In this document: in pieces, positions 4,393 to 19,256 of the stretch
Position numbering within the stretch: the stretch's first letter is position 1
Layout: each line of letters opens with the position of its first letter
Assembly: GCA_937910235.1 (NCBI GenBank)
Contig: CALENB010000151.1
Coordinates: 1 to 22,445 of the forward strand
DNA length: 22,445 nt
Source: an uncultured Myxococcales bacterium
GTDB lineage: Bacteria > Myxococcota_A > UBA9042
Direction of reading: 5' to 3'
Position numbers and translations under genes: made by a program
Notes under the pieces: model-generated
The model's database searches: none
What the model saw: only the letters and a program-made list of their open reading frames with translations
Told to the model about the DNA's origin: nothing

Positions 4393-5976
4393 GTGAACTA
4401 CGTTATTGCCATCGCCGTCATGGCTACGCTGGTGATTTTCAGCTTCATGCTGCTGGTGATCAAGCGGTATCGGCGCTGTCCGTCCAATCAGATCTTGGTC
4501 GTCTACGGCAAGGTCGGCGGCGGGCAGAGCGCGCGGTGCATGCACGGTGGCGGCGCGTTTGTGTGGCCGCTGATTCAGAACTACGCCTATCTCAGCCTGG
4601 ATCCGCTGCAGATTGAGATCCCGCTCCAGGGTGCGCTCTCCGCCGAGAACATCCGCATCAACGTGCCCTCCGTGTTCACCGTCGCCATCGGAACCGAGCC
4701 CGCCGTGATGCAGAGCGCCGCGGTGCGTCTGCTCGGGCTGTCGCATCAACAGACCGTCGATCAGGCCCGCGACATCATCTTCGGTCAGATGCGCCAGGTC
4801 ATCGCCTCGCTCGAGATCGAGAACATCAACCGCGACCGAGACACCTTCAGTCACAGCATTCAGGGTGGCTTGGAGCCGGAGCTGCGCAAGATCGGGCTGG
4901 TGCTTATCAACGTGAACATCACCGACATCACCGACGAGTCGGGCTATATCGAGGCGATCGGTCGCAAGGCCGCCGCTGAGGCGATTCAGCAAGCGGTGAT
5001 CGACGTCGCTGAGCAGCAGAAGCGGGGCGCGATCGGTGTCGCCAGCGCGGAGCGAGACCGCGCCGTTGAGGTCGCCGAAGCTGAGAGGATCAAGCAGATC
5101 GGCGTGACGCTGGCGCGGCAGCAGCAGGCCATTCGCATCGCCGAGCTCGAGCGCGACCGGGTCGTTGGTGAGGAGCGCGCCTCCCTGCAGCGCGAGTCGC
5201 AGGTCGCCGAGGCGGAGAAGGAGAAGCGCGTGCGCGTGGCGGACGCTGAAGCGCTGGCGACAGAGGGCGAGAACCTGGCAGCCGCGAAGGTCGCCAAGGT
5301 GAACGCCGACCTGCAGGTCGACCGCGCAGACGCTCGGCAACGTGGTGAGACCCGCCAGCGCGAGGCAGATGCCGCCGTGTTTGCGGCGCAGTATCGCGCC
5401 GAGGCCGCGGCCGCACAGGAGCTGGCGAAGAAGGTCGAAATGGAGCGACGCGCCGAGGTGGAGGCCGTCGCGAAGGCGAACAAGGCGCGGATCATCGTCG
5501 ACGCAGAGGCCGAGGCCGACAAGCGTCGGATTGAAGCCGAGGGCGACGCCGCGGCGATCTTCGCGCGCCTGGACGCGGAGGCCCGTGGTCAATACGAGAT
5601 CTTGCGTCAGAAGGGCTTGGGTCTCCGCCAGATCGTCAACGGCGTCGGTGGCGCAGACGCGGCGTTCCAGCTGCTGATGCTGGAGCACATGGACTTCTTG
5701 GCTGAGCAGAGCTCCAAGGCGATCCAGAACATCAAGTTCGACAAGATCACGGTGTGGGACAACGGCATCGGTGAGGACGGCAAGACCTCGACCGGTCGCT
5801 TCCTGCAAGGGCTCGCTGGCTCGCTGCCGCCCGTGCTGCACATGATGCGCGACATCGCCGGGGTGCAGATGCCCGAGGCGCTCGGCAAGATCATCGGTGA
5901 CGCGGACGAGGTCAGCGCTCGGGTTGATTCGGGCGACGCTGGGAAGGCGGACCGCGCCGAAGACGCTGTGACCTAG
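4393..5976 (+). CDS. floT: flotillin-family SPFH-domain protein (FloT/YuaG-like)
   Basis: GTG start at 4393 with GGAGG 7 nt upstream. N-terminal TM helix (VIAIAVMATLVIFSFMLLVI), an SPFH/band-7 core, and a long E/A/R-rich coiled-coil (AEAERIKQ..., RAEVEAVAKANKARIIVDAEAEADKRRIEAEGDAAA) characteristic of flotillins. Lies immediately downstream of the nfeD-like gene. Confidence 0.9.
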   Translation: MNYVIAIAVMATLVIFSFMLLVIKRYRRCPSNQILVVYGKVGGGQSARCMHGGGAFVWPLIQNYAYLSLDPLQIEIPLQGALSAENIRINVPSVFTVAIGTEPAVMQSAAVRLLGLSHQQTVDQARDIIFGQMRQVIASLEIENINRDRDTFSHSIQGGLEPELRKIGLVLINVNITDITDESGYIEAIGRKAAAEAIQQAVIDVAEQQKRGAIGVASAERDRAVEVAEAERIKQIGVTLARQQQAIRIAELERDRVVGEERASLQRESQVAEAEKEKRVRVADAEALATEGENLAAAKVAKVNADLQVDRADARQRGETRQREADAAVFAAQYRAEAAAAQELAKKVEMERRAEVEAVAKANKARIIVDAEAEADKRRIEAEGDAAAIFARLDAEARGQYEILRQKGLGLRQIVNGVGGADAAFQLLMLEHMDFLAEQSSKAIQNIKFDKITVWDNGIGEDGKTSTGRFLQGLAGSLPPVLHMMRDIAGVQMPEALGKIIGDADEVSARVDSGDAGKADRAEDAVT

Positions 5977-6822: not shown

Positions 6823-7194
6823 ATGAGTCGACGCACCACACAGCGCTCCGCGATCTGCGCCGCCTTTGAATCCGCCGCGCGTCCGCTGAAACCAGACGAG
6901 GTGCTCGCCCTGGCGCAGCAAGTGGTGCCGGGGCTGGGCGCGGCGACCGTGTATCGCAACCTCCGCCGACTCACCGAGGACGGCTGGCTGCGCGTTGTGG
7001 CGCTGCCCGGCGACGCGACGCGGCTGTACGAACGAGCCGGGCTCGCGCATCACCATCATTTCCATTGCGACCGCTGTGACCGCGTCTTTGACGTGCACGT
7101 CTGCCCCGGGGATCTAGGCAAGCTCGTGCCGCCGGGCTTCGCTGTGACGCAGCACGAGTTTGTGCTGTACGGGAGCTGCGCCGACTGCAACTAG
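6823..7194 (+). CDS. zur: Fur-family metalloregulator (Zur-like by genomic context)
   Basis: Winged-helix region with the conserved ATVYRNLRRL motif, followed by HHHHFHCDRCDRVFDV and a C-terminal CADC metal site. Assignment to Zur rather than Fur or Mur is an inference from the adjacent znuACB-type operon. Confidence 0.85.
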   Translation: MSRRTTQRSAICAAFESAARPLKPDEVLALAQQVVPGLGAATVYRNLRRLTEDGWLRVVALPGDATRLYERAGLAHHHHFHCDRCDRVFDVHVCPGDLGKLVPPGFAVTQHEFVLYGSCADCN

Positions 7195-7284
7195 CCGCCA
7201 CGCATCGCCGATGCTCCATCGCCCCGCGGGCGGGCCATACGGATGCCATCTCCTAACTCTTTGGTTCTATTTACCGCGCACGCC

Positions 7285-7325
7285 ATGCTTGCAAATGAGA
7301 AGCAGTTATCATTAATGTTCGCCAT
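7285..7325. promoter_or_regulatory. AT-rich Fur/Zur-box-like operator candidate between the Fur-family gene and the OMP-znu operon
   Basis: ttgcaaatgagaagcagttatcattaatgttcgcc is a conspicuous AT-rich island in GC-rich DNA. It contains the perfect palindrome CATTAATG and a TTATCATTAAT core that matches the Fur-box half-site ATCATTATC at 7 of 9 positions. It sits immediately 5' of the likely OMP start codons at 7315 and 7324. Confidence 0.35.
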
Positions 7326-8676
7326 GCTCGACGCCTACCGACACAGTCTCCACCCCCGCGCCGCCCGCCAATCACTGGCTGTGGCGCTCCTGATCGGGTG
7401 CGTCGTCGCGTCGCCGCGGTGTCATGCCCAGCCCACACCGCCGCCGCCGCCGCCGCCGCTGGCGTCCACGGCGCAACCCTCGCCAGAAGAACAGCGCCTG
7501 CTGCGGGACAGCTTGCAGGCCGATCGTCGCGGCCAATCCGCCAGTGGGACGGTCCCAAACGCCGCGTCGCTCCCGGCGGGCACCGGCGGGCCGGCTGCCT
7601 ATCGAAGGCAGTCGCTCGCGACCGTCATGAACCCGAACATCTCGCTCATTCTCGATGTAGCCGCGGGCTGGTTCTCGGTCGAAAAGCCGCTGCAGGCCGG
7701 CGCGCATGACCCAAACAAGACTGGCTTTACCCTGCAACAACTCGAGCTACACCTGGACGCCGCGGTCGACCCATATTTTGAGTTGCAAGCCAACCTCGTC
7801 TTCACCGAGGAGGGCGTTGAGGTAGAGGAGGCCTATGCACGCACGCTCTCCCTGCCCGCTGCGCTGCAGCTGCGCGCCGGACAGTTCTTCACCCGGCTTG
7901 GGCGCACAAACGCGACGCATCCGCACACCTGGAACTTCGCTGACCAGCCGATCGTCAACGGTAAGATGCTGGGAGGGGATGGACTGCGCGGAGTCGGCGC
8001 CGAGCTGTCGTGGCTCAGCCCCTTGCCCTGGTATGCGGAGGTGGTCGTCAGCACGCAGATGGGCACTGGCGCCTGCTGCGCCCGCAGCTTCTGGGGCGAT
8101 CAGGCACAACCGGTGCGCACCCCGACGGACCTGATGCAGCTGGCGCGGCTTCAGCAGTTCTTTCCCCTGAACCAGGATTGGAGCGTGTCGTGGGGCTTGT
8201 CCGCCGCCACGGGACCCAACGGCTCAGGCGTCGGGACCGCGGGCCTCGCGACGTCGGACGACGTCCGCACCGATCTGTGGGCGACCGATCTCTACGTGCG
8301 CTACCGCCCGGTGGCGAACCGCGCGCGCGTCGCGTTGTCGTGGCAGACCGAGGCGATGTTGCGCCGTCGCCACGGAGGCGATCGTGTGCTTCAAGACTGG
8401 GGCGTCACCTCCGAGCTTGTGTGGCGCTACGACTTGCGGCACGCCGCTGGCATCCGTGTGGAGCACGTGACCGGCGTGGTGGACGACCCCCTGGATCCCG
8501 ACTGGACCGGGGCCCGACAGCGTCTCACGGCGCAGTGGACGCTGTTCCCCTCCCATTTTTCACGGCTGCGCTTTCAGACCAGCGTCGACCAGCCATCTTG
8601 GCGCTCAAAGCCGATAATCGCGGCGTTTGTGGCGCTTGAGGTGCTGATCGGCGCCCACGGCTCGCACGAGTTTTAG
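7315..8676 (+). CDS. outer-membrane beta-barrel protein (putative metal-uptake porin) in operon with znuACB
   Basis: The track ORF starts at 7243, but the signal-peptide-like stretch (RAARQSLAVALLIGCVVASPRCHA-QP) begins after the internal ATGs at 7315 and 7324. A poly-Pro linker follows (PTPPPPPPP), then alternating amphipathic beta-strand-like sequence. The C-terminus is ...EVLIGAHGSHEF with a terminal Phe, typical of OM beta-barrels. The downstream znuA start is 10 nt after the stop with a strong SD. Confidence 0.65.
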   Translation: MFAMLDAYRHSLHPRAARQSLAVALLIGCVVASPRCHAQPTPPPPPPPLASTAQPSPEEQRLLRDSLQADRRGQSASGTVPNAASLPAGTGGPAAYRRQSLATVMNPNISLILDVAAGWFSVEKPLQAGAHDPNKTGFTLQQLELHLDAAVDPYFELQANLVFTEEGVEVEEAYARTLSLPAALQLRAGQFFTRLGRTNATHPHTWNFADQPIVNGKMLGGDGLRGVGAELSWLSPLPWYAEVVVSTQMGTGACCARSFWGDQAQPVRTPTDLMQLARLQQFFPLNQDWSVSWGLSAATGPNGSGVGTAGLATSDDVRTDLWATDLYVRYRPVANRARVALSWQTEAMLRRRHGGDRVLQDWGVTSELVWRYDLRHAAGIRVEHVTGVVDDPLDPDWTGARQRLTAQWTLFPSHFSRLRFQTSVDQPSWRSKPIIAAFVALEVLIGAHGSHEF

Positions 8677-8685
8677 GAGGTTCAG

Positions 8686-9654
8686 ATGCGCTTCATCGGC
8701 AGCTCTCACCGACACCCAGGCCTACGGGGCGCCGTGGTTGTCGCCTTGGTCGTCGCCGGGATCGCGGCGCCGTCCGGATGGGCCGCCCCTTCGAAGATCG
8801 CGCCGGCGCTGCAGATTGTCGCGACCCTCCCCGATCTGGCGGCGCTTGTGCAGGCGGTAGGCGGCCCCCACGTTCACGTGACCGCCTTGGCCGCACCCAA
8901 CCAAGATCCCCACTACGTCGACCCTCGACCGAGCCTGATGTTGCCGCTGTCCCGCGCACATCTGCTCGTCGTCAACGGTCTGCAGCTGGAGCAAGGCTGG
9001 CTTCCGCCGCTGATCCGGGGTTCCCGCAACAGTCGCATCCAGCCGGGCACCACTGGGCACCTCGACGCGTCGTTTTTTGTGCAGAGGCTGCAGGTGTCGA
9101 CCGCCCCGCTCAGCCGCGCCATGGGGGACGTGCATCCCGGTGGCAACCCGCATTTTGTCTGTGATCCGCGCGCCAGCGCCCGCGTCGCTAAGGCGATTGG
9201 CGAACGGCTGGCCCAGTTGGACCCCGCGCACGCCGCCGCCTATCTGGCCCAGACGACGGCGTTTGTGGCGCAGCTGACGGCCATCGCCAAGGCCCAGCGG
9301 AGCCGCTTCGCCAAGCTGCCTGTGCCCAGGCGGCGTATTGTCAGCTACCACCGCTCGTTGCCCTATCTGCTCGATTGGCTGGGCCTGCAGGAGGTGGCGA
9401 CCGTCGAGCCGCGACCGGGCATCCCGCCGAGTCCGGCGCACACCGCGACCGTTCTGACCACGATGCGGCAGCTGGGCGTGACCGTGCTGGTGCAGGAGGA
9501 GTTCTACCCGCGCCGCGTCAGCCAGACATTGGCGAAGCTCGTGAAGGGCGCCGTCGTCGTGCTGCCGGGCGGAGCCCGCTTTGACCGAGGAGAGACCTAT
9601 GTCGCCCGCCTCCAGCGCACGACCGCCGCGCTCTACGCTGCCCTCGGTGGCTGA
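8686..9654 (+). CDS. znuA: metal (Zn/Mn) ABC transporter periplasmic substrate-binding protein, ZnuA/TroA family
   Basis: AGGAGG 6 nt upstream of the ATG. Signal peptide (AVVVALVVAGIAAPSGWA). Conserved cluster-9 SBP features (DPHYVDPRPSLMLPLSRAHLLVVNGLQLEQGW; HPGGNPHFVCDP). Confidence 0.9.
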   Translation: MRFIGSSHRHPGLRGAVVVALVVAGIAAPSGWAAPSKIAPALQIVATLPDLAALVQAVGGPHVHVTALAAPNQDPHYVDPRPSLMLPLSRAHLLVVNGLQLEQGWLPPLIRGSRNSRIQPGTTGHLDASFFVQRLQVSTAPLSRAMGDVHPGGNPHFVCDPRASARVAKAIGERLAQLDPAHAAAYLAQTTAFVAQLTAIAKAQRSRFAKLPVPRRRIVSYHRSLPYLLDWLGLQEVATVEPRPGIPPSPAHTATVLTTMRQLGVTVLVQEEFYPRRVSQTLAKLVKGAVVVLPGGARFDRGETYVARLQRTTAALYAALGG

Positions 9655-10396
9655 GGTCGCGCCGACGCTGGTGACGCTGGACGCGCTGCGTCCAGGCTAT
9701 GACGGACGCGCCTTGCTGCCGCCAGTGAGCCTGCGCCTCGTCGCTGGCGAGCTGTGGGCGCTGGTCGGTCGCAACGGCGGCGGAAAGACGACGCTGATGC
9801 AGACGCTCCTCGGTCTGCAGGCGCCGGTCTCTGGCGCTGTCACGCACAAAGACGGCCTGCGGATGGCCTACGTGCCGCAGCGATTACGCTATGATCTCAG
9901 TGTTCCGACGCGCGTCACCGACTTTGTGGCGGACGGGTTGGAGACCGGGTGGCGTTTTCTCAACCCCTTTCGGAGCGCCCAGCAGCGGGCCAGCGTGGCG
10001 GAGGCGCTGCGCGACACGGACCTTGAAGCCATCGCGCTGGCGCCCCTGAGCGCGCTCTCGGAGGGACAGAAACAGCGAGTGGTGATCGCCCGCGCTTTGG
10101 TCACCCAGCCGCACCTGATGGTGCTCGACGAGCCGACGAGCGCGATGGACCCCGTCAACGAGCGCCAGATCCTCGGGTTGATCGCCGGGCTCTCGCAACA
10201 GCGCGCCATTGCGGTGATGATCGCGAGCCACCACATGCGCGCCTTGCCGGACTTCGCCCAGCACGCCCTGCTCGTCGACAAAGACCTCGGCATCGCCCGC
10301 GCTGGTGGTCTGCGGGAGGTGTTTCAATCGGCTGAGTTTCGCCGCATCTACGGAGATCCGCCGCTCGGCGCGCAATCGGAGGCGCAACGTGCTTGA
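9599..10396 (+). CDS. znuC: metal ABC transporter ATP-binding protein
   Basis: Walker A GRNGGGKTTL, ABC signature LSEGQKQRVVIARAL, and Walker B LMVLDEPTSAMD. The ATG at 9599 has GGAGAG upstream but overlaps znuA by 56 nt. An alternative in-frame GTG at 9671 lies 17 nt after the znuA stop. Confidence 0.85.
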   Translation: MSPASSARPPRSTLPSVAEVAPTLVTLDALRPGYDGRALLPPVSLRLVAGELWALVGRNGGGKTTLMQTLLGLQAPVSGAVTHKDGLRMAYVPQRLRYDLSVPTRVTDFVADGLETGWRFLNPFRSAQQRASVAEALRDTDLEAIALAPLSALSEGQKQRVVIARALVTQPHLMVLDEPTSAMDPVNERQILGLIAGLSQQRAIAVMIASHHMRALPDFAQHALLVDKDLGIARAGGLREVFQSAEFRRIYGDPPLGAQSEAQRA

Positions 10397-11264
10397 GGCC
10401 GCGCCCACGCTCGACCAGTTCATGGACGGTTGGGAGCTCTTTGCCGACCCAGCGCTGACCGGCGCGGCCATGGGCATGACCCTCGGTGTCGTCGGGGTCT
10501 ACGTCGTCGTCCGCCATCTCGTCTTTCTCAGCGCCACCCTCTCGCAGGCCGCCAGCCTGGGGGTCGCGCTGTCGTTTCTCGGCCGCGGCTTGGGGCTGCC
10601 CGCGTGGCTGATCTCACCCACCCTCGGCGCCGCGGTGGTCAGCCTCGGCGCCGTCAGCCTTTTTGCCCGCCCGCTCCGACGCCCACACGCCCGCGATGAC
10701 GCCACCCTCGGCCTGCTGTACCTCGTCGGCGCCGCGGGCACCTTGGCCGTGGGGACCCGCGTTGTGCAGGATCTCGCCGACATCCAGACCCTGCTCTTCG
10801 GCACTGCGGTCGCCGTGTTGCCGGAGGATGTGCACCTCGTGTTGTGGACCTGCGCTGGCGTCCTCGCGCTCCACGCCTGGTGGTGGCGCGGCTTTGTGGC
10901 GACGAGCACCGACCTCACTGGGGCCCGCGTGCGGCAGCTGCCGGTGCGCTTGATCGACCTCACGCTCTTTGTGACGCTCGCGCTCAGCGTCTCCGTGTGT
11001 ACGCGCGTGCTCGGCGCGCTGCCGGCCTTCGCCTTCTCGGTGCTGCCCGCGCTGGGCGCGCTGCGGCTCGCCGCCAACGTGCCGCAGGCGCTGCTGTGGG
11101 CCGGCGGTCTGGGCGCGGTCATCGGCTTCTCCGGCTACCTAGTGGCCTTTCTGTGGTCCCTGCCAGTCGGCGCGAGCCAGGCGCTTGTGGGCGCCGCGCT
11201 GGTGGCGGTGACGTACGCGATTAGCCCGATTTTGCGCCGTTTCCGTCAGCGCCACCTCGGCTGA
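10389..11264 (+). CDS. znuB: metal ABC transporter permease (ABC-3 family)
   Basis: Multi-pass hydrophobic protein. GTG at 10389 overlaps the znuC stop (GTGCTTGA), a classic coupled start. The track ORF extends upstream to 10305 but that stretch is Arg-rich and non-membrane-like. Confidence 0.8.
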   Translation: MLEAAPTLDQFMDGWELFADPALTGAAMGMTLGVVGVYVVVRHLVFLSATLSQAASLGVALSFLGRGLGLPAWLISPTLGAAVVSLGAVSLFARPLRRPHARDDATLGLLYLVGAAGTLAVGTRVVQDLADIQTLLFGTAVAVLPEDVHLVLWTCAGVLALHAWWWRGFVATSTDLTGARVRQLPVRLIDLTLFVTLALSVSVCTRVLGALPAFAFSVLPALGALRLAANVPQALLWAGGLGAVIGFSGYLVAFLWSLPVGASQALVGAALVAVTYAISPILRRFRQRHLG

Positions 11265-11522
11265 AGCGCGTCGGATCGCGCCACTGCAGGGCCGCGTTCT
11301 CAGGCCAAGTTCGGCACGACCCAACGTCACCACCCGATCAGTTTTTGTCCTCGGCCACCGTCTGACGGCTATGTTCAATTCACAGTACTGCCGCAGCCAC
11401 GACGATGCGCTGGCATCCCGAGCGCTGACCGATGGAGCGGGTTCGCCGGTTTGTGGCCGAGCGATCGCCGCGATCGTGCGCGCGGTCCACACACAGCAGC
11501 CGACGGGGAGGAGCGCCGACAC

Positions 11523-12668
11523 ATGGAACGTGAGCACAAAAGAGTCGGGTCCGTTGCGCTCGTCTTGCTGGGGGTGGGCGTCGTCATCCTCGCGGCTGAT
11601 GCGGCGACGGGTCGCCAGCGCCTCGGGCTGCCTCCGGTGCCGGTGCCGGCCGACAACCAGATCACGCTCGCCAAGGTGGCGTTGGGTCAGAAGCTATTTG
11701 AGGACAAACGGTTGAGCGCCACGGGAGAGGTGTCCTGCGCGACGTGTCACGATCGTGCCAAAGCCTTTACCGATCATCGCAAGACCTCGCTCGGGATTCG
11801 CCAGCGCGCCAGCTTGCGCAACGCCCCAACGCTGATCAACGCCGCGTTCAACACGACCCAGTTCGGGGATGGCCGCTCACCGAGTCTGGAGGATCAAGCC
11901 CTCCATCCCTTTCTCAATCCGGTGGAGATGGGACTGGAGAGCCACGCCCCGGTCTTGCAGCTTGTCCGCACCGATGACGTGTACGTCGAAGCCTTCAAGG
12001 TGGCGTTTGGCAAGACCGACACAGCGATCACCATGAAGGAGGTCATTCAGGCCATCGCCACCTTCGAACGCACGCTCATCGCCGGCAACTCGGCGTTTGA
12101 TCGCTACTACTTCGGCCAGCAGAAGTCCGTGCTCACAGCCGCGCAGAAGCGGGGTCTCCGCGTCTTTCGCAACAAGGGCCGCTGCGTGTCGTGCCACGTC
12201 ATCGAGCAGACCACCGCGCTGTTCACCGACCACCAGTTCCACAACATCGGCGTCGGTATCCACAACATTCAGAACGACCTGCCGCGGTTGGTCGGCGAGT
12301 TTCTGAAGACGAAGCGGACCATGGCTGAGATCGACATCAACGTGCTCAGCGACGCCAAGACCTCGGAGCTCGGCCGCTTAGCGGTCACGCGCTCGTTTGA
12401 GGACATCGGGGCGTTCAAGACACCAACGCTCCGCAACGTCGCCTTCACCGCGCCCTACATGCACGACGGCTCCATCAAGACCCTGCGCGAGGCGGTTGTT
12501 CACCACAACAACGGCGGCGTGACGCGAAAGGGCGACAAGGTCAACGCCTACTTGAGCGGCGGCATCCGGCCGCTGGCGCTCACGAAGCAGGAGATCGACG
12601 ACTTGGTGTCGTTCATGGAGGCGCTGACGAGTCCAATGGTGACGCGGGGCGCCAAACGGGGGAACTAG
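11523..12668 (+). CDS. di-haem cytochrome c peroxidase (CcpA/MauG family)
   Basis: GGGAGG upstream of the ATG at 11523. Signal peptide. Two CxxCH motifs (CATCH, CVSCH) with the spacing and flanking motifs of bacterial di-haem CCPs (NAPTLINAAFN...QF..DGR; FKTPTLRNVAFTAPYMHDGS). The stop is 3 nt before the next start. Confidence 0.9.
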   Translation: MEREHKRVGSVALVLLGVGVVILAADAATGRQRLGLPPVPVPADNQITLAKVALGQKLFEDKRLSATGEVSCATCHDRAKAFTDHRKTSLGIRQRASLRNAPTLINAAFNTTQFGDGRSPSLEDQALHPFLNPVEMGLESHAPVLQLVRTDDVYVEAFKVAFGKTDTAITMKEVIQAIATFERTLIAGNSAFDRYYFGQQKSVLTAAQKRGLRVFRNKGRCVSCHVIEQTTALFTDHQFHNIGVGIHNIQNDLPRLVGEFLKTKRTMAEIDINVLSDAKTSELGRLAVTRSFEDIGAFKTPTLRNVAFTAPYMHDGSIKTLREAVVHHNNGGVTRKGDKVNAYLSGGIRPLALTKQEIDDLVSFMEALTSPMVTRGAKRGN

Positions 12669-12671
12669 CTC

Positions 12672-13742
12672 ATGACATCTATCAACCGGCGCAGCTTCCT
12701 GACCAGATCTGCCGCGGCGATCGCAGCTGGGGTGGTGCCGATGAGCGTCGTCAAACTCGCCTACGCCGACGCGGCGCAAGACTTCTCATTCGCGTACATC
12801 TCCGATGCGCACATTCAGCACATCAAGGGCGGTCGGTTCGTCCGCAGCTGGGATCGCGGTCTGATCCGAGCCGTGGCCGAGACCAACCTGCTCTCACCCA
12901 AACCGGACTTCGTCATGTTCGGCGGCGACTTGGCGCACCTTGGTGGCCGCGCCGAGCTCGACCACGGGGCGGAGATCCTGTCTGCGCTCGGCTACAAGAC
13001 GCGCTACGTGATGGGTGAACACGACTACTACCTCGATTTGGGTCGGTATTGGTCGACGCTGTTTGGTCCGCAGTACTACGCTTTCGACCACAAAGGCGTC
13101 CATTTCGTGGTGCTCAACAGCATCCTCACGCACGAAAAGTGGACCCTGCAGCGCTGGCCTGACGCCAAGACGCGCATGCGTCAGATGGCCGCGCTCGACA
13201 ATCCCAATGGCTCGCCATTTATGGTCGGCGCGCCACAGCGGGCGTGGCTGCAGGCCGACCTGGCGAAGGTCAACAAGGCCACGCCGGTCGTCGTCTTCTC
13301 GCACTCCCCGCTCCAGAAGCTCTACAGAGGCTGGAACTTCTGGACCGACGACGCAGACGAGGTCCAGGCGCTGCTGCAGCCGTTCGACCACGTCACCGTG
13401 ATCTACGGCCACGTGCATCAAATCCAATACAACCAGATCGGCAACATCAGCTTTCACGCGGTGATGGCGACCGCTTGGCCGTGTCCGTGCCCGTCGACGT
13501 ACGCGCAGGCCAAGCGCGCCATGCCTGTGTTGACGGTGCCGATGAACCGGGCCGATCCGTTCCATGAGCGCGACGGCACCGGCTGGCAGTTCATCGACAT
13601 GAACAGCGGCAAGGTGGCGGCGAACTACACGCTCTACAACAACCCCTCGCGGCGCGTGGTCTGGAACCCGACGACGCGTCGGCCCGAGGACGCGGACTTT
13701 CAGGATCCAACCAAACAGGTCGAGCCGCAGAAGCACTACTAG
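12672..13742 (+). CDS. Tat-exported metallophosphoesterase (calcineurin/purple-acid-phosphatase-like)
   Basis: Twin-arginine motif NRRSFLTRSAAAIAAG. Metallophosphoesterase metal-ligand motifs SDAH, GGDLAH, GEHDY, VVFSHSP and GHVH. GGGGAA SD upstream. Tightly coupled to the flanking ccp and cytochrome c genes. Confidence 0.85.
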   Translation: MTSINRRSFLTRSAAAIAAGVVPMSVVKLAYADAAQDFSFAYISDAHIQHIKGGRFVRSWDRGLIRAVAETNLLSPKPDFVMFGGDLAHLGGRAELDHGAEILSALGYKTRYVMGEHDYYLDLGRYWSTLFGPQYYAFDHKGVHFVVLNSILTHEKWTLQRWPDAKTRMRQMAALDNPNGSPFMVGAPQRAWLQADLAKVNKATPVVVFSHSPLQKLYRGWNFWTDDADEVQALLQPFDHVTVIYGHVHQIQYNQIGNISFHAVMATAWPCPCPSTYAQAKRAMPVLTVPMNRADPFHERDGTGWQFIDMNSGKVAANYTLYNNPSRRVVWNPTTRRPEDADFQDPTKQVEPQKHY

Positions 13743-13753
13743 GGGAACGCACC

Positions 13754-14167
13754 ATGAACAAGACCGACATCACGTTCGCGCTGGGCGCAGCGAGCCTCGT
13801 CGCCCTCGCCGTCGGGGCCACGGCGGACGCAGACAACTTCACCAAGCCGGACATCCGGCGTTGGACGAGCGAGTACCTGACGGTCGTGCAGCAGGGTCGC
13901 GCGTTGTGGGGGAGCCCCAAGCTGGGGACCAACGGCGTGACATGCGGGCAGTGTCACCCCAACGCCGCCAACACGCACCCGGAGACGTACCCGAAGTTCC
14001 AGAAGCAGCTCGGCAAGGTCGTGCCGTTGCGTGAGATGATCAACTGGTGCTTACGCAACCCGCTGAAGGGCAAGCCGCTCGCGTACGATGACCCGACGAT
14101 GATCGCGATTGAGGCCTACGTGACGCACGAACGACGCGGTGTGCGGTTGGCGCCAGGCAAACACTAG
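13754..14167 (+). CDS. mono-haem c-type cytochrome (periplasmic)
   Basis: Signal peptide MNKTDITFALGAASLVALAVGATADA and a single CGQCH haem-binding motif. The start lies 11 nt after the phosphoesterase stop with GGGGA upstream. Confidence 0.8.
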   Translation: MNKTDITFALGAASLVALAVGATADADNFTKPDIRRWTSEYLTVVQQGRALWGSPKLGTNGVTCGQCHPNAANTHPETYPKFQKQLGKVVPLREMINWCLRNPLKGKPLAYDDPTMIAIEAYVTHERRGVRLAPGKH

Positions 14168-14178
14168 CGCCGCGCGCC

Positions 14179-15021
14179 TCAGGGGCCGACGCAGGTGCCG
14201 CCGGCGCAGACCTTGCCGATAGCGCACAGCGAGCCATCGGGCGCGGGTTTGTGGGTGCAGCCGCCCTTGCCGTCACAGGCGTCGAATGTGCAGAGGTTCG
14301 TGTCTGCGCAGCCGATCACTGGCTTGCTGGCGCACGTTCCGGCGGCGTCACAGCTGTCGTGGCCCCACGGGTCGGTGCGAATAACGCGGATTTGTGGGCC
14401 TGCAGTTGTCTGCACTGCGCCGAGCAACGCCAGCGAGCCATCTGCCCAACGGTCGAGCGCGCGCGCCGTCGGCAACGACATGGCGGCCAAGTCGGCGTTG
14501 TGTTGCGTGTTCCAGATGGGGTTGCCCGCGCCGTCCGTCCCCATCAGGCCGAGCACGCCGACGCCGCTCACGCTGAGCTGGTTGGCCATCACGAGCCCTG
14601 TTTGCGTAGCGATCACGGAAGACCACTTGGACCCCGTCGGGCTGACCTGCTCCAGCAGCACCTTGCCGGATTCGTTGACCAGCATCGCCCACGGGATCTT
14701 GAATCCCGGCGCGTACGTGGCTTGGCCGCTCAACACGGTGCCGACCGAGGCCAGCGCTGCGCCGAGCACGGTGACGGGGTACTTCGCCTTGACGATGACG
14801 TTCGCCAGGACCAGGCCGCCCGCGCTCAGCAAGGCGACACGCACGGTCTTCTCGTTCGCCACGAGTGACGCCGCGATCAGCACGTGGCCGCTCCCGTTGG
14901 TGCTGAGGCGCGCGTTGCCCTGTATCGCGCCGGTCGCGCCGAGCGCAGCCGTCGGCCAGACCGCGGCGCCGTCGCCGTTGATGCGCTGCACACGCAACGC
15001 CGTGTCAAACCACGCGACCAC
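14179..15021 (-). CDS. C-terminal segment of the Cys-rich repeat protein (second beta-rich module plus DPWGHDSC Cys-knot tail)
   Basis: Same frame as the upstream piece. It begins at a GTG 24 codons after the TGA at 15094-15096 and ends RTDPWGHDSCDAAGTCASKPVIGCADTNLCTFDACDGKGGCTHKPAPDGSLCAIGKVCAGGTCVGP, paralleling the RADPWGRDSC... module upstream. Confidence 0.5.
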   Translation of the reverse strand: MVAWFDTALRVQRINGDGAAVWPTAALGATGAIQGNARLSTNGSGHVLIAASLVANEKTVRVALLSAGGLVLANVIVKAKYPVTVLGAALASVGTVLSGQATYAPGFKIPWAMLVNESGKVLLEQVSPTGSKWSSVIATQTGLVMANQLSVSGVGVLGLMGTDGAGNPIWNTQHNADLAAMSLPTARALDRWADGSLALLGAVQTTAGPQIRVIRTDPWGHDSCDAAGTCASKPVIGCADTNLCTFDACDGKGGCTHKPAPDGSLCAIGKVCAGGTCVGP

Positions 15022-15093
15022 CGCGTCACCGCCAGTCGCGGCGCCGATGGCGTCATGGCCCCAGGTCTTCTGCTTCGGATCGGCGTCCCAACT

Positions 15094-18000
15094 TCACATC
15101 GCTTTTCCCTCGAGATCTCGGCGTTGCAGCGTCGCGTGCGGGTAAGTACCGCCGCTGGTCACATGGCCGAGCACCGCGATGTCACCGCCGATCGGCGCGA
15201 CCGCGACGGCGCCCAAGCCTGCGCTCCCCACCGGCAGCGTGACGGAATCGGTCGCGACGCCAACCACGCCGCCGCTGTCCGAGATCCGCACGCTGACGTT
15301 GTTGGCGTCCGCGCCGCGGCCCACGACAGCCACGCCGCCATCCGGGAGCGTCGCGATCGCTGCGACCGACGTCACGCCTGGCACCGCCACCGTCTTGGCG
15401 TAGAGCAACGTTGCCTGTCCGGCGTTGCAGGTCGCCCCGCTGCAGGCCCCGTCGAGGTGGCACGCGTCGCCCGGTTTGCACAGCAGCCCCGGCGGCGCGG
15501 CGTGAAAGCAGCCGGTTGCGGCCGAACAGAGGTCGAGGTTGCAGCTCTTGCCATCTGAGCAGTCGTAGTACGCCTTGTCGCCGCACGCGCCGGAAGAAGC
15601 GCAGCTGTCACGTCCCCAGGGGTCGGCGCGCACGTACCAAGACTCCTCCTTGCCGCCGCCAACCGCCTCGCTGTAGCCCGCGAAAAACAACCTGCCGTTC
15701 GCCAGCACACCGACGGCCGTGGCCACGTCTCGCCGGCCCGGCTCCATCGGCGGATTGCGGACCCACTCCAAGTTGCCTTGCACGTCGAGCACGCCGAGGT
15801 ACGCGCGATTCGCGTACGACGGATCGTGAAAGCTCCCCGCGAAGACGACGGCGTCGTCGCCTCGGGTGACGAGCGAGTTGAGCTCACTGCCAACGGGGCT
15901 GGTGATCTGGCGCGCGAGCACCCCGGAGGCGTTGGTCATGACCGCCCACGCGTACGGGTAGCCATTCACGCGGTTCGCGCCGGCCGCGGCGAACGTGCCG
16001 GAACTGGTGACCGCCACATCGTTCAACCGCCCGTCGTTCGCCGTGACGAAGCGTCGCTGCCACAGCAGCTTTCCAGCCTTGTCGTGACGAAACAGCCACC
16101 CGTTCCGCTGTCCGGTTGTCCCCGTCCAGCCGCAGCCGACCGTGCCGCCATCGGTCCCCACACGCTTCAAGGACAGGGGCATCGCCGACTCCGTCGTCGG
16201 GATCAGGTAACGCCACATCGGGTTACCAATGAGCGTCGTGCGTCCGATGAAGGGCTTCGCGCCGCCGGTCTTTGTCACCTCGGCGCCAACCCACGTCGCG
16301 CCACCGTCGGCCTGGCCAGCCACGCCGCCCGCCCGCGCGTCCTTGGTCAGATCCCCAATCACCTTGGACCAGTTCGTGCCGAGGCCGACGTCGACGTGAT
16401 AGAGGAACAGGGCCCGCTTGTCGTCCTTGTACGCGGTGTCGCCGACGAGCGAGACCACCGTGCCGCCGTTTGAAGACAGCGCGGTGACCTCAAACGTCGT
16501 GTCTGGATACGGCGGCGGGGCGAGGTTGCCGCTGGAGATCTGACCGTTCGCGTCGGTCACGAGCAGCCAGCCGTAGCGCGTGCTGGTCTGGTCTCCCTTG
16601 ACCCCTGTCCACGCGATGCCTGCCATCACCGCCGAGCCGTCCGCCAGCGTGACCAGGTCGGTGATCCGGCTGCGGAGCCCAGGAACCGGCTTCTTCGTGT
16701 ACGTGCCGGCCTGCAGGCGCCGGTGAAAGAACGCCGCGTGGCCCGCGCCGCTGCACGTGCCTTGTGTGCACTCGGACGCCAGCGAGCACGCGTCGTCGTC
16801 GTCACACGCCGCGCCGTCACTCGCAGGCAGCACGACACACGTGAACGAGGTCGGACCCTGCGAGAGGCAGCTCGCCACCTGGCACGCCTTCACCGCCTGG
16901 GTGCAGATGACGCTGTTACCCGTCGCGCAGACGCCGTCTTTGGTGCACGTGTCATTCACCGTGCAGCCGGAGTTGTCGCCGTTGCAGACCTTGCCCTTCA
17001 TCGCGTCGGCGTCCCCGTCGCACTTGCCCGTCTTCGTGTCACAGCTGTCCACCGTACACGCGTTGCCGTCGTCGCAGCTCTTCGCCACGTGCATGCAGCC
17101 AGCCGGCGTCTTGCAGCTGTCCACTGTGCACTCGTCGCCGTCGTCGCAGTCGGTCGGTTGGTTGCCCTTGCAGCCGCCGAGCCCGTCGCACGTGGTCCCC
17201 GCTGTGCAGACGTCGCCGTCCTCGCACGGACTGCCGCCCTTGTTCGGTTGCAGTCCGCACACGCCGGACTTGCCGTCACAGCTGTTGGTCAAACACGCCG
17301 TGTTACCGAGCGGGCTGCAGAACACCTTGCTCGCCGGGTTAAAAACACATTTCGGGACTTTGAGGGACTTGTCGCAGTAGAAGATGCCGTTGCAGAGGTC
17401 ACCGTCGTCCTCCTTCTCGCAGTCCGCGTTCTGGGTGCACTCGCAGATGGCCGCCGCGCTCTTGCAGGCCTTGCCCTCGCACACATCACCCGTCGTGCAC
17501 GCGTTGCCGTCGTCGCACTTGAAGGGACCCTCATCGCCCTTCTGGCCCACAATCTTCGGCTGCCAGGCGCAGTCCTGCCCTTTGTCGCCGGTACAACTCA
17601 GCACCGCGTCGGCCCGCGCGACCTGGGTGCACGTGCCTTCTTTGGGCAAACACACCGTCTTCGCGCAGCCCGTGTCGTCCACCGTCGGGCAGACCACCAC
17701 CGACGCTGGATTGGGCGCGCACTGGCCTGTGGCTTTGTCGCAGAACGCGATGCCGTTGCACTTGTTGCCGTCGTCCTTGTCGGCGCAGTCGCTGTCTTTG
17801 GTGCACGCACACAGGTAGGTGCCCGCTTGGCACAGACCGCCAAGGCAATGATCGCCGCTGGTGCAGGCGTCGCCGTCATCGCACGCCGTCGTCGGCGGGG
17901 CCGCGGCGGGCTGGCAGAGCCCGGTCGCCGGGGTGCAGGCGCTCGTCGTGCAGGCATCCGCGCCGCCTTTGGGGCAAGTGACCACTGTCGCCGGGTTGAC

Positions 18001-18312
18001 CTTGCACACCGGCGGCTTCGCCGCGACGTCGCAGTACAGCGTGCCGTTGCAGGCGTCGCCGTCCTCTTTCTTAAGACAATCCGCGCTCGTCGCGCACGTG
18101 CACACGTTGTCGCCGCCGGGCGCGCAGACCCCGGATTTGCAGGCGTCGCCTACCGTGCAGCCATCGTCGTCGCTGCACGCGCTGCCGTCCTTGCTGGCGA
18201 CCTTCGCGCACGTGCCGGTCTTGGGCTGGCAGACCGAGTCTTGACACGCCGCGCCGCTGTCGCCGCAGACCACGATCGTCACCGGGTTGATCTTGCACCG
18301 GAACGGAAACAC
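15094..18312 (-). CDS. central segment of the Cys-rich repeat protein (about ten Myxococcales-type Cys-rich repeats plus a beta-rich module and a DPWGRDSC Cys-knot)
   Basis: The open frame actually continues upstream to 18465 without a start codon; 18312 is only the first in-frame GTG. Repeats of the form C-x-D-D-G-[DN]-x-C-T-x-G-D-x-C and CExDxDCxKEDDGDxCNGxxYCD with NPA[ST]VVxC spacers, similar to TIGR02232-type myxobacterial Cys-rich repeats. Confidence 0.6.
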   Translation of the reverse strand: MFPFRCKINPVTIVVCGDSGAACQDSVCQPKTGTCAKVASKDGSACSDDDGCTVGDACKSGVCAPGGDNVCTCATSADCLKKEDGDACNGTLYCDVAAKPPVCKVNPATVVTCPKGGADACTTSACTPATGLCQPAAAPPTTACDDGDACTSGDHCLGGLCQAGTYLCACTKDSDCADKDDGNKCNGIAFCDKATGQCAPNPASVVVCPTVDDTGCAKTVCLPKEGTCTQVARADAVLSCTGDKGQDCAWQPKIVGQKGDEGPFKCDDGNACTTGDVCEGKACKSAAAICECTQNADCEKEDDGDLCNGIFYCDKSLKVPKCVFNPASKVFCSPLGNTACLTNSCDGKSGVCGLQPNKGGSPCEDGDVCTAGTTCDGLGGCKGNQPTDCDDGDECTVDSCKTPAGCMHVAKSCDDGNACTVDSCDTKTGKCDGDADAMKGKVCNGDNSGCTVNDTCTKDGVCATGNSVICTQAVKACQVASCLSQGPTSFTCVVLPASDGAACDDDDACSLASECTQGTCSGAGHAAFFHRRLQAGTYTKKPVPGLRSRITDLVTLADGSAVMAGIAWTGVKGDQTSTRYGWLLVTDANGQISSGNLAPPPYPDTTFEVTALSSNGGTVVSLVGDTAYKDDKRALFLYHVDVGLGTNWSKVIGDLTKDARAGGVAGQADGGATWVGAEVTKTGGAKPFIGRTTLIGNPMWRYLIPTTESAMPLSLKRVGTDGGTVGCGWTGTTGQRNGWLFRHDKAGKLLWQRRFVTANDGRLNDVAVTSSGTFAAAGANRVNGYPYAWAVMTNASGVLARQITSPVGSELNSLVTRGDDAVVFAGSFHDPSYANRAYLGVLDVQGNLEWVRNPPMEPGRRDVATAVGVLANGRLFFAGYSEAVGGGKEESWYVRADPWGRDSCASSGACGDKAYYDCSDGKSCNLDLCSAATGCFHAAPPGLLCKPGDACHLDGACSGATCNAGQATLLYAKTVAVPGVTSVAAIATLPDGGVAVVGRGADANNVSVRISDSGGVVGVATDSVTLPVGSAGLGAVAVAPIGGDIAVLGHVTSGGTYPHATLQRRDLEGKAM

Positions 18313-18465
18313 CGATTTCTCGCAGTAGAGCGTGCCGTTGCACAGGTCGCCATCCTCCTGTCCGGCGCAGCTCAGCGTCTCGCTGCATTCGCAGAAGTTG
18401 GCGCTGCCCGTGGTGCATTTGCCCTTGAGGCAGTGGTCGCCGGTCGTACAGGGGTCGCCATCTTC

Positions 18466-18882
18466 TCACGCCGCGTGGCTGTTCTGCGGCTTGGCGACGC
18501 AAGCGCCCGTCTTGGGGTTGCACTGAGTAATGGAACAGATCCCATCGCTCGTGGTGTCGCAGGTCACCGCGCTGCCAGCCTTCAGACCGCATCGCCCCTT
18601 GGTGCAGGCCGGCACGCCATTGCACACGTCTCCGTCGTCGGCGCAGTCCGAATCGGTGACACATTCATTGGCCGTGTCCGGCGACGCCGTGTCTGCGCCC
18701 GCAGCGCTGTCCACAACGGTCGCGCTATCGAGGACCACGGTGGCGTCTACTTCGCCAACATCCGCGGCGGCGCCGTCGGTCGTCGTGCCGGAGACGGGAT
18801 CTGCCTCGGTGCATCCAGGCGACACGGCCAGGGCGAGGACCGCCAAGCTCAACACCAACAGCGCCAACGTGCGTCTCAACAT
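18466..18882 (-). CDS. N-terminal segment of the Cys-rich repeat protein (signal peptide plus first Cys-rich repeat), ending at an in-frame TGA
   Basis: ATG at 18882 with GGAGG at -9. Signal peptide. CVTDSDCADDGDVCNGVPAC...CNPKTGAC repeat. The track start at 18993 adds a non-signal-like extension. Confidence 0.55.
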   Translation of the reverse strand: MLRRTLALLVLSLAVLALAVSPGCTEADPVSGTTTDGAAADVGEVDATVVLDSATVVDSAAGADTASPDTANECVTDSDCADDGDVCNGVPACTKGRCGLKAGSAVTCDTTSDGICSITQCNPKTGACVAKPQNSHAA

Positions 18883-19115
18883 AGCGGTCATCCTCCAGCC
18901 TCCGGACCCGCGGAACGACAGCGAAACGCCTGACCAGACGACGCCTGTCGAACACGATAACGCTACTGTACACGATGGATGTTGGACCGCCACGGTGCGG
19001 GTTTACCGCGGCGTCGTGGGCGGCCGACTCGCGCGCCACCCCGGCGGCCGCCGCTCGCTCACAGGCCGGACCTACGGCACCGCAGCGGGCTTGTACGGCG
19101 ATGGCCGCGCGACGC

Positions 19116-19256
19116 CTAGTACTTCGTCCACACCGCGAGCTCGTTGCCGGCCGGGTCGCGGAACGTCCAGCCAAATGCGTCGCCATAGAACGACTTTAGG
19201 GTGTCGGTCCTGGCGCCGCTGAGTTCGATGTAGTCAACGCGGGCGATGGCGGTCAT
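19116..19256 (-). pseudogene. 46-aa remnant of a VOC/glyoxalase-family gene with the central ~70-80 codons deleted in frame
   Basis: ATG at 19256 with GGAG upstream (ggagactgcATG). Product MTAIARVDYIELSGARTDTLKSFYGDAFGWTFRDPAGNELAVWTKY joins the typical VOC N-terminal motif (VDYIEL...FY...FGW.F) directly to the typical C-terminal motif (F.DP.GN.L.VW), then stops. Too short for the ORF track. Confidence 0.4.

Follow-up and report, generated by a model that had tools for sequence, protein, structure and literature searches.

The stretch analyzed here, 22,445 nucleotides (nt) of contig CALENB010000151.1 from an uncultured Myxococcales bacterium (the window, in which all positions below are counted unless another contig is named), carries on its minus strand a very large gene that is interrupted by two in-frame TGA codons (14179..18891). 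Our analysis indicates that it is very likely a pseudogene created not long ago by nonsense mutation, and that it is fixed in a Baltic Sea population that is nearly clonal. Both stops are real and derived, each differs from the ancestral codon by a single base, and TGA serves as an ordinary terminator elsewhere in this genome. The phenomenon is ordinary; the protein family concerned is poorly known.

One gene interrupted by two TGA codons

The list of open reading frames (ORFs) for the window places three minus-strand pieces at this locus, namely, 18466..18993, 15094..18312, and 14179..15021. The three pieces share one frame, and translating 19002..14179 gives a continuous protein-like sequence with two internal stops and a terminal one, which bears out the preliminary description of the window, in which three same-frame minus-strand ORFs broken by two in-frame TGA codons had been proposed. 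Counted from the ATG at 18891, the disrupted coding sequence (14179..18891, minus strand) has 1570 sense positions in one frame, with 111 Cys and 22 Trp codons, and all three of its stops (codon 142, codon 1266, and the end) are TGA. The single frame of ~4.7 kb put forward earlier holds. Its upstream end had been set at 18882, which is the position of the second in-frame ATG, while the gene callers used on other contigs start at 18891.

Homology ties the three pieces together. When full-length homologues were aligned with tblastn, both stops were crossed in a single frame, with the alignment of the closest homologue, P0002, reaching 1457 bits. Since these alignments pass both TGAs without leaving the frame, the gene contains no frameshift, and the earlier statement that the sequence stays open without frameshifts over about 1570 codons is correct. 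P0002 (51% identity, 100% coverage) is encoded by a single uninterrupted gene of 1558 amino acids (aa), with which the window gene is collinear over 100% of its length; a division of orthologues into three genes, named in the preliminary description as the outcome that would speak against a single gene, is not what this homologue displays. Because the homology spans the full length, including the 51 and 24 codons that lie between each TGA and the next possible start, the agreement with a one-gene frame is far beyond chance. These skipped codons are 61% and 38% identical to P0002, respectively, and are as conserved as the rest of the protein. The locus is one gene, not three.

Both ends of the gene are well defined. 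Its terminal stop, a TGA followed by G (14179..14181, minus strand), is authentic, as the C terminus aligns with the ends of the homologues, and a back-up in-frame TAG lies five codons further on (14164..14166). Among the starts in the locus, only the ATG at 18891 has a Shine-Dalgarno motif: the sequence upstream of it reads GGAGGctGGAGG, and two GGAGG motifs form a ribosome-binding region directly 5' of the ATG (18892..18905, minus strand). Residues 1 to 27 (18811..18891) read as a signal peptide with a lipobox-like end, MTAMLRRTLALLVLSLAVLALAVSPG followed by Cys (SPG-C). P0002 (AAAFVGC) and the family consensus likewise have a Cys that follows a hydrophobic N-terminal segment, and the giant protein is a predicted lipoprotein.

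No such signals accompany the downstream pieces. The second and third pieces have no ATG, Shine-Dalgarno motif, or signal peptide following either stop, and the first possible start is a GTG in both cases, 52 codons past the first TGA and 25 codons past the second. These pieces encode disulfide-rich extracytoplasmic domains yet lack a signal peptide, and the break points fall within a Cys-rich module (stop 1) and within a propeller blade (stop 2). Judged by their starts and break points, the downstream pieces appear to be incapable of separate expression.

Occurrence and origin of the stops

We found the exact 1072-aa middle piece on 11 contigs, with a one-residue variant (P0001) on 3 more, and the exact 280-aa third piece on 19 contigs. 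These contigs come from several samples and about ten assemblies (ERZ1283799, ERZ1283818, ERZ1283824, ERZ23486278, ERZ23486334, ERZ888641, ERZ887841, ERZ964643, ERZ27059129, and Logan ERR2206771), which include MEGAHIT, metaSPAdes-style, Logan, and scaffolded assemblies. The record of ERZ964643 bears the label PRJEB22997, which papers on Baltic Sea metagenomes cite as a project, and the other assemblies derive from PRJEB22997 and related samples. A base-by-base comparison of 10 distinct contigs with the window (99.9 to 100% identity) revealed single-nucleotide polymorphisms (SNPs) elsewhere and no variant at either TGA. The premature TGAs are present in the organism and are not artefacts; this recurrence across samples and assemblers refutes the assembly or base-call error that had been considered at first.

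What the stops replaced was read from an alignment of the window protein with 28 full-length homologues. Stop 1 (18466..18468, minus strand; codon 142, context GCG TGA GAA) occupies a column that holds Cys in 28/28 homologues, and the corresponding position is Cys in all four later module copies of the window protein itself. Stop 2 (15094..15096, minus strand; codon 1266, context ATG TGA AGT) falls on a propeller-blade Trp that is present in 15 of the 28 homologues, P0002 included. At the DNA level, P0002 has GCC TGC GAA at site 1 and GTG TGG ACG at site 2, just the TGC and TGG that the preliminary description had expected an uninterrupted orthologue to carry. In the P0002 propeller model, the Trp of site 2 lies in strand E105-109, in a 10-residue block with a mean predicted local distance difference test (pLDDT) score of 93. 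From these comparisons, both stops arose by third-position substitutions, TGC or TGT to TGA at an ancestral Cys codon and TGG to TGA at an ancestral Trp codon.

The number and kind of such mutations can be compared with what the gene offers as a target. We enumerated all single-base changes in the reconstructed gene and found 412 routes to a stop codon, which is 2.9% of all possible substitutions. The commonest of these nonsense routes is TGC to TGA, with 94 (23%), and changes from Cys or Trp codons to TGA make up 33% of the nonsense routes and 86% of those that create a TGA. The chance that two of two nonsense hits are of this kind is ~0.10. The Cys/Trp pattern of the stops is unremarkable; when the genome is G+C rich, a Cys-rich gene offers many sites at which one base change creates a TGA. 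Given the nonsense share of 2.9%, a second nonsense hit is expected after ~34 neutral substitutions on average.

Within the giant gene, we counted three nonsynonymous SNPs (S674R, G916D, and G924R) and one synonymous SNP; the flanking genes have three of each, at about half the density. The ratio in the giant gene is close to the neutral expectation and fits relaxed selection, in numbers that are too small for proof. P0002, at 51% identity, is too divergent for estimating synonymous divergence.

Probable recent inactivation and its alternatives

In the scenario that we favor, two independent single-base substitutions would have inactivated the gene, one costing it the invariant Cys at codon 142 and the other the propeller Trp at codon 1266. 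Release factor 2 would end translation at codon 142, so that no more than the first 141 aa would be made, and the remaining 1428 codons would persist as untranslated relics, because they offer neither a start codon with a ribosome-binding site nor a signal peptide. We infer that the function has been lost, that the bulk of the gene is not translated, and that paralogue redundancy makes this tolerable; the loss is probably tolerated because each genome holds several paralogues of the family. The inactivation would be very recent, because codon bias has not eroded and the other conserved residues have all been kept: only one of the 124 family-invariant residues (C142) is lost in the window protein. 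Very recent pseudogenization had been one of the possibilities raised in the preliminary description, and it is the one that the evidence backs, with real, derived stops one base from the ancestral codons.

Several observations weigh against this interpretation. Apart from the stops, the gene shows no decay: there is no frameshift, the G+C content at third codon positions is 0.87 in both large pieces, and 123 of the 124 invariant residues are in place. Using the 412 routes and the 124 invariant positions, we estimate the joint probability of acquiring two stops without losing any other invariant residue at ~0.08 to 0.14, which is mildly unexpected and not significant. Both stops are UGA, the leakiest stop codon, and near-cognate insertion of Trp at site 2 would restore the ancestral residue. 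Both are also fixed across every contig seen, although the fixation says little about how long they have persisted, because the population is near-clonal. Finally, strict orthology of P0002 is unproven, because its identity is 51% and the synteny between the two loci is weak: both have a convergent downstream metallophosphoesterase gene, and the two phosphoesterases are barely similar (E = 0.04). The assignment of P0002 as an orthologue is not proven and rests on its best-hit status and full-length collinearity.

Whether UGA is recoded in this genome can be judged in part from how other genes end. About 28 kb of the host genome was read, and our stop census covers the window together with contig L079, which extends it, and the 23 genes called there. 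The 21 genuine gene ends comprise 11 TGA, 10 TAG, and no TAA codons; in this small sample, the TAG share seems high for a genome with ~67% G+C. TGA followed by G, as at site 1, is the commonest genuine TGA terminator (7/11) and also ends the giant gene itself, and TGA followed by A, as at site 2, ends ZnuB. ZnuA and ZnuB stop where their Pfam models stop, and there is no other split gene in the window. Genome-wide reassignment of UGA to sense (code 4 or 25) is excluded, as TGA ends 11 genuine genes.

The surroundings of the two stops are equally ordinary. The 69 nt from each TGA, folded against shuffled sequences, had no excess stability (z = -0.5 at site 1 and -0.2 at site 2), and when the 63-nt windows past all 132 codons of the gene that are Cys, Trp, or TGA are ordered by stability, those past TGA1 and TGA2 rank 123 and 37. 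Rfam, scanned with the window and with the two stop regions, the latter at E values up to 10, returned no selenocysteine insertion sequence (SECIS) and nothing else of relevance. No tRNA gene lies within the window. In-frame TGAs are absent from the homologous regions of ~68 family loci in other genomes; the few stops spanned there are TAA or TAG and are taken to be gene ends crossed by run-on alignments. The traits of programmed readthrough are absent, with stops that are missing from P0002 and the ~68 loci, no structure, and ordinary +4 bases. We also considered A-to-I (TadA-type) editing of the mRNA from UGA to UGG. The edited A of such sites must lie in the sequence TACG, within a hairpin that mimics the anticodon arm of a tRNA, and this candidate was dropped, the contexts here being TGAG and TGAA with no hairpin. 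UGA recoding, by readthrough or by selenocysteine, had been proposed alongside pseudogenization and finds no support: site 2 was ancestrally Trp, there is no SECIS-like element, and TGA terminates neighboring genes.

Among the alternatives to recent inactivation, the main one, though unlikely, is that the gene is a leaky "pseudo-pseudogene," in which low but useful UGA readthrough by near-cognate tRNA-Trp(CCA) or a suppressor tRNA would yield a little full-length protein. Site 2 would regain its Trp, site 1 would receive either Trp or Cys, and the stops would serve to strongly down-tune expression. That both stops are UGA, that frameshifts and other lesions are lacking, and that site 2 is ancestrally Trp all speak for it. 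Precedents exist as well: for bacteria, there are documented cases of in-frame stops that purifying selection maintains and of nonsense pseudogenes that are translated at a low level (PMC7918605, PMC9122581), and a 2026 survey found that tRNA-Trp(CCA) with a 4-bp anticodon stem, which promotes UGA readthrough, is comparatively prominent in Myxococcota (PMC13092985). However, serial stops multiply the penalty, so that readthrough of ~1% at each would leave a yield of ~1e-4, and Trp at site 1 would displace a Cys that no homologue in our alignment lacks. The +4 bases (G and A) match those of nearby genuine terminators rather than the C favored at Salmonella read-through stops, there is no stimulatory structure, P0002 lacks the stops, the window offers no tRNA gene, and the SNPs in the giant gene are three nonsynonymous to one synonymous. 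The more specific idea that this lineage reads UGA as Trp often enough to matter, through the 4-bp-stem tRNA-Trp(CCA) or a suppressor tRNA, for example, strikes us as quite improbable; the two UGAs would then act as a heritable dimmer on a costly 1570-aa surface protein, and codon 1266 would regain its ancestral Trp. If UGA-to-Trp readthrough were indeed appreciable in a Myxococcota lineage that also keeps UGA as a stop, this locus could serve as a natural reporter of ambiguous UGA decoding outside any host, in a free-living bacterium; none of our results requires it. A functional split, with the fragments acting as separate products (a 141-aa lipoprotein, or re-initiated middle and C-terminal proteins), is very unlikely. 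While the intact start, ribosome-binding site, and signal peptide mean that the 141-aa fragment can probably still be made, and gene callers do annotate three ORFs, the downstream pieces lack the start signals and the signal peptide that their extracytoplasmic domains call for, and one split falls in the middle of a Cys-rich module, the other inside a propeller blade. Moreover, the called GTG starts (18312 and 15021) would drop the 51 and 24 conserved codons, and no homologue is split at these points, neither P0002 nor any of the ~68 loci.

We give very little credence to the insertion of selenocysteine, or of Cys in a SelB-dependent manner, at the UGA of codon 142. The alignment of this UGA with a homologue-invariant Cys is the classical signature of a selenocysteine/Cys pair, and since site 2 is an ancestral Trp codon, such an exchange could apply to site 1 only; selenocysteine could not rescue a gene whose second UGA sits at a Trp position. 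No hairpin rises above background at site 1, where the downstream window is among the least stable of the gene (rank 123/132, z = -0.5), and Rfam has no SECIS match. The disulfide-rich stalk has ~110 Cys, of which this residue is one; going by the module model and its conservation, it is probably not redox-active, and none of the ~68 loci of other genomes has a UGA there. As TGC to TGA is the dominant nonsense route in G+C-rich, Cys-rich genes, a TGA at a conserved Cys is in itself no evidence for selenocysteine. Almost no weight can be given to a sequencing or assembly artefact or to genome-wide UGA reassignment, for which nothing speaks beyond the presence of the stops. Identical TGAs occur in the MEGAHIT, metaSPAdes-style, Logan, and scaffolded assemblies of several samples, and two TGA-creating substitution errors in one gene in every assembly are implausible; reassignment conflicts with the 11 neighboring genes that end in TGA at Pfam-consistent positions and with the ~67% G+C of the genome. 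As for annotation, a single disrupted gene should be recorded in place of the three called ORFs (141, 1072, and 280 aa).

Protein family, neighborhood, and comparison with known systems

The product is indeed a giant secreted Cys-rich repeat protein, as the preliminary description had it, and its architecture can be drawn in more detail (all positions on the minus strand). Residues 76 to 715 (16747..18666) form a Cys-rich stalk of five ~97-aa modules followed by Dicty_CTDC-like CDDGxxCTxDxC repeats, as supported by Pfam PF00526, by periodicity, and by an AlphaFold model. Residues 716 to 1095 (15607..16746) make up a first beta-rich domain, which is probably a beta-propeller, judging from recurring G..xW blade-like motifs and a sub-threshold match to the delta-60 repeat. 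A Cys-rich linker with invariant Cys columns from C1097 to C1155 (residues 1096 to 1160; 15412..15606) leads to the second beta-propeller, which contains stop 2 (residues 1161 to 1510; 14362..15411) and was assigned from the equivalent P0002 model and Foldseek. The C terminus is a Cys-rich, Dicty_CTDC-like cap (residues 1511 to 1570; 14182..14361) recognized by PF00526 on the third piece. PF00526 (Dicty_CTDC) scores 31.1 bits on the stalk and 27.7 bits on the third piece, with a gathering cutoff of 27. A search of PDB sequences and NCBIfam returned nothing usable.

Structure models were built on P0002 domains as stand-ins for the window protein. AlphaFold predicts an elongated shape for the first two modules (pLDDT 91.5), with weak, nonsignificant fold matches to the Cys-rich stalks of eukaryotic lectins and disintegrins. 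The C-terminal domain is predicted to be all-beta (pLDDT 86.4; predicted template modelling score, 0.86), and Foldseek matches it to beta-propellers, namely, CylK, YncE, NHL, and PLL lectins, with E values down to 6e-13. On these models, the product would be a surface or secreted disulfide-rich stalk bearing two propeller-like, putative binding domains. More than 3500 relatives are found in databases, many of them collinear over 93 to 100% of the query, and the named ones belong to metagenome-assembled genomes (MAGs) of uncultured Deltaproteobacteria or Myxococcota. Scanning genome contigs with the single protein uncovered distant paralogues (27 to 58% identity), with several paralogous loci per MAG. 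With PF00526 above its cutoff and full-length collinearity with the conserved Cys pattern, the giant protein belongs to this family; the ~1570-aa product was probably exported and lipid anchored, as a member of a large paralogous family in uncultured Myxococcota.

The module array shows a further peculiarity. Its DNA has a periodicity of 291 nt, and contigs of three assemblies end or break within it at exactly 17502 and 17801: L083 and L084 begin at 17502, and in scaffold L082, the two positions are separated by 100 Ns. What had looked like a 198-bp deletion in this scaffold proved to be a run of scaffold Ns. Exact repeats fail to explain the breaks, because the modules are only ~70% identical in DNA, and strain-level variation in module copy number is possible. 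On the opposite strand, a 736-aa ORF (16723..18933, plus strand) runs antisense to the giant gene; we take it to be a by-product of high G+C content and codon-position bias and not a gene.

Between the giant gene and the upstream gene of 624 aa lies a 46-aa ORF (19116..19256, minus strand) with a sub-threshold match to the N terminus of vicinal oxygen chelate (VOC; glyoxalase/bleomycin resistance) proteins. It aligns with positions 1 to 29 of the 121 in the Pfam Glyoxalase model (E = 0.17) and with Ble-like_N (E = 0.007). It looks like the truncated remnant of a ~120-aa gene and, if so, would count as a second sign that genes decay in this region. A metal-related cluster on the plus strand (~6823..14167) converges on the giant gene and encodes, in order, a Fur/Zur-family regulator, a 453-aa protein, ZnuA, ZnuC, ZnuB, a di-haem cytochrome c peroxidase, a metallophosphoesterase, and a SoxA/TsdA-type cytochrome c. 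The ZnuB, peroxidase, and phosphoesterase genes share a reading frame with single stops between them and are clearly distinct genes. Farther away, the window differs from L079, L081, L082, and L083 by a 12-nt indel polymorphism at ~5996, at the boundary of a Band_7/SPFH gene (4393..5976) and an opposite-strand 221-aa ORF. On the 66.8-kb contig L079, an IS200/IS605-type Y1 transposase gene (L079 positions 5142..5543) lies ~0.2 to 0.6 kb past the right end of the window.

Comparison with known systems begins with the family itself. The window gene resembles the other members of the Myxococcota Cys-rich repeat and beta-propeller family in being collinear from the signal peptide to the C terminus, across 124 invariant columns, most of which are Cys, and differs from them in that the premature stops occur in the window copy alone. 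The A1 protein of phage Q-beta is produced by programmed UGA readthrough; such stops are conserved, and the extension is an optional add-on. The likeness is that of a UGA followed by an open, protein-like frame, whereas here the stops are lineage specific and interrupt core domains. With bacterial selenoprotein genes, which combine a UGA with a SECIS hairpin, SelB, and tRNA-Sec, the locus shares a UGA (codon 142) that aligns with Cys in all homologues. In contrast to those genes, it has no SECIS-like structure, the Cys concerned is probably a structural disulfide Cys in a repeat rather than a catalytic redox Cys, the other UGA corresponds to a Trp, and the stop is not conserved in relatives.

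UGA-to-Trp decoding, be it through code 4, a suppressor tRNA-UCA, or the 4-bp-stem tRNA-Trp(CCA) (PMC13092985), resembles our case insofar as codon 1266 is ancestrally Trp and the phylum is one for which the 4-bp-stem tRNA-Trp is reported to be comparatively common. Here, however, UGA is clearly a terminator, the other UGA stands at a Cys position, and the genome is G+C rich. Further counterparts are bacterial unitary nonsense pseudogenes, including the "pseudo-pseudogenes" of Salmonella (PMC9122581) and genes with conserved in-frame stops (PMC7918605). Our case, known from sequence alone, differs from them in having two stops and no frameshift and in coming from an uncultured Myxococcota population instead of a host-restricted pathogen. 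It resembles them in that the gene is otherwise intact, the stops are sense codons in relatives, the leaky TGA is involved, and each stop lies one base from the ancestral codon.

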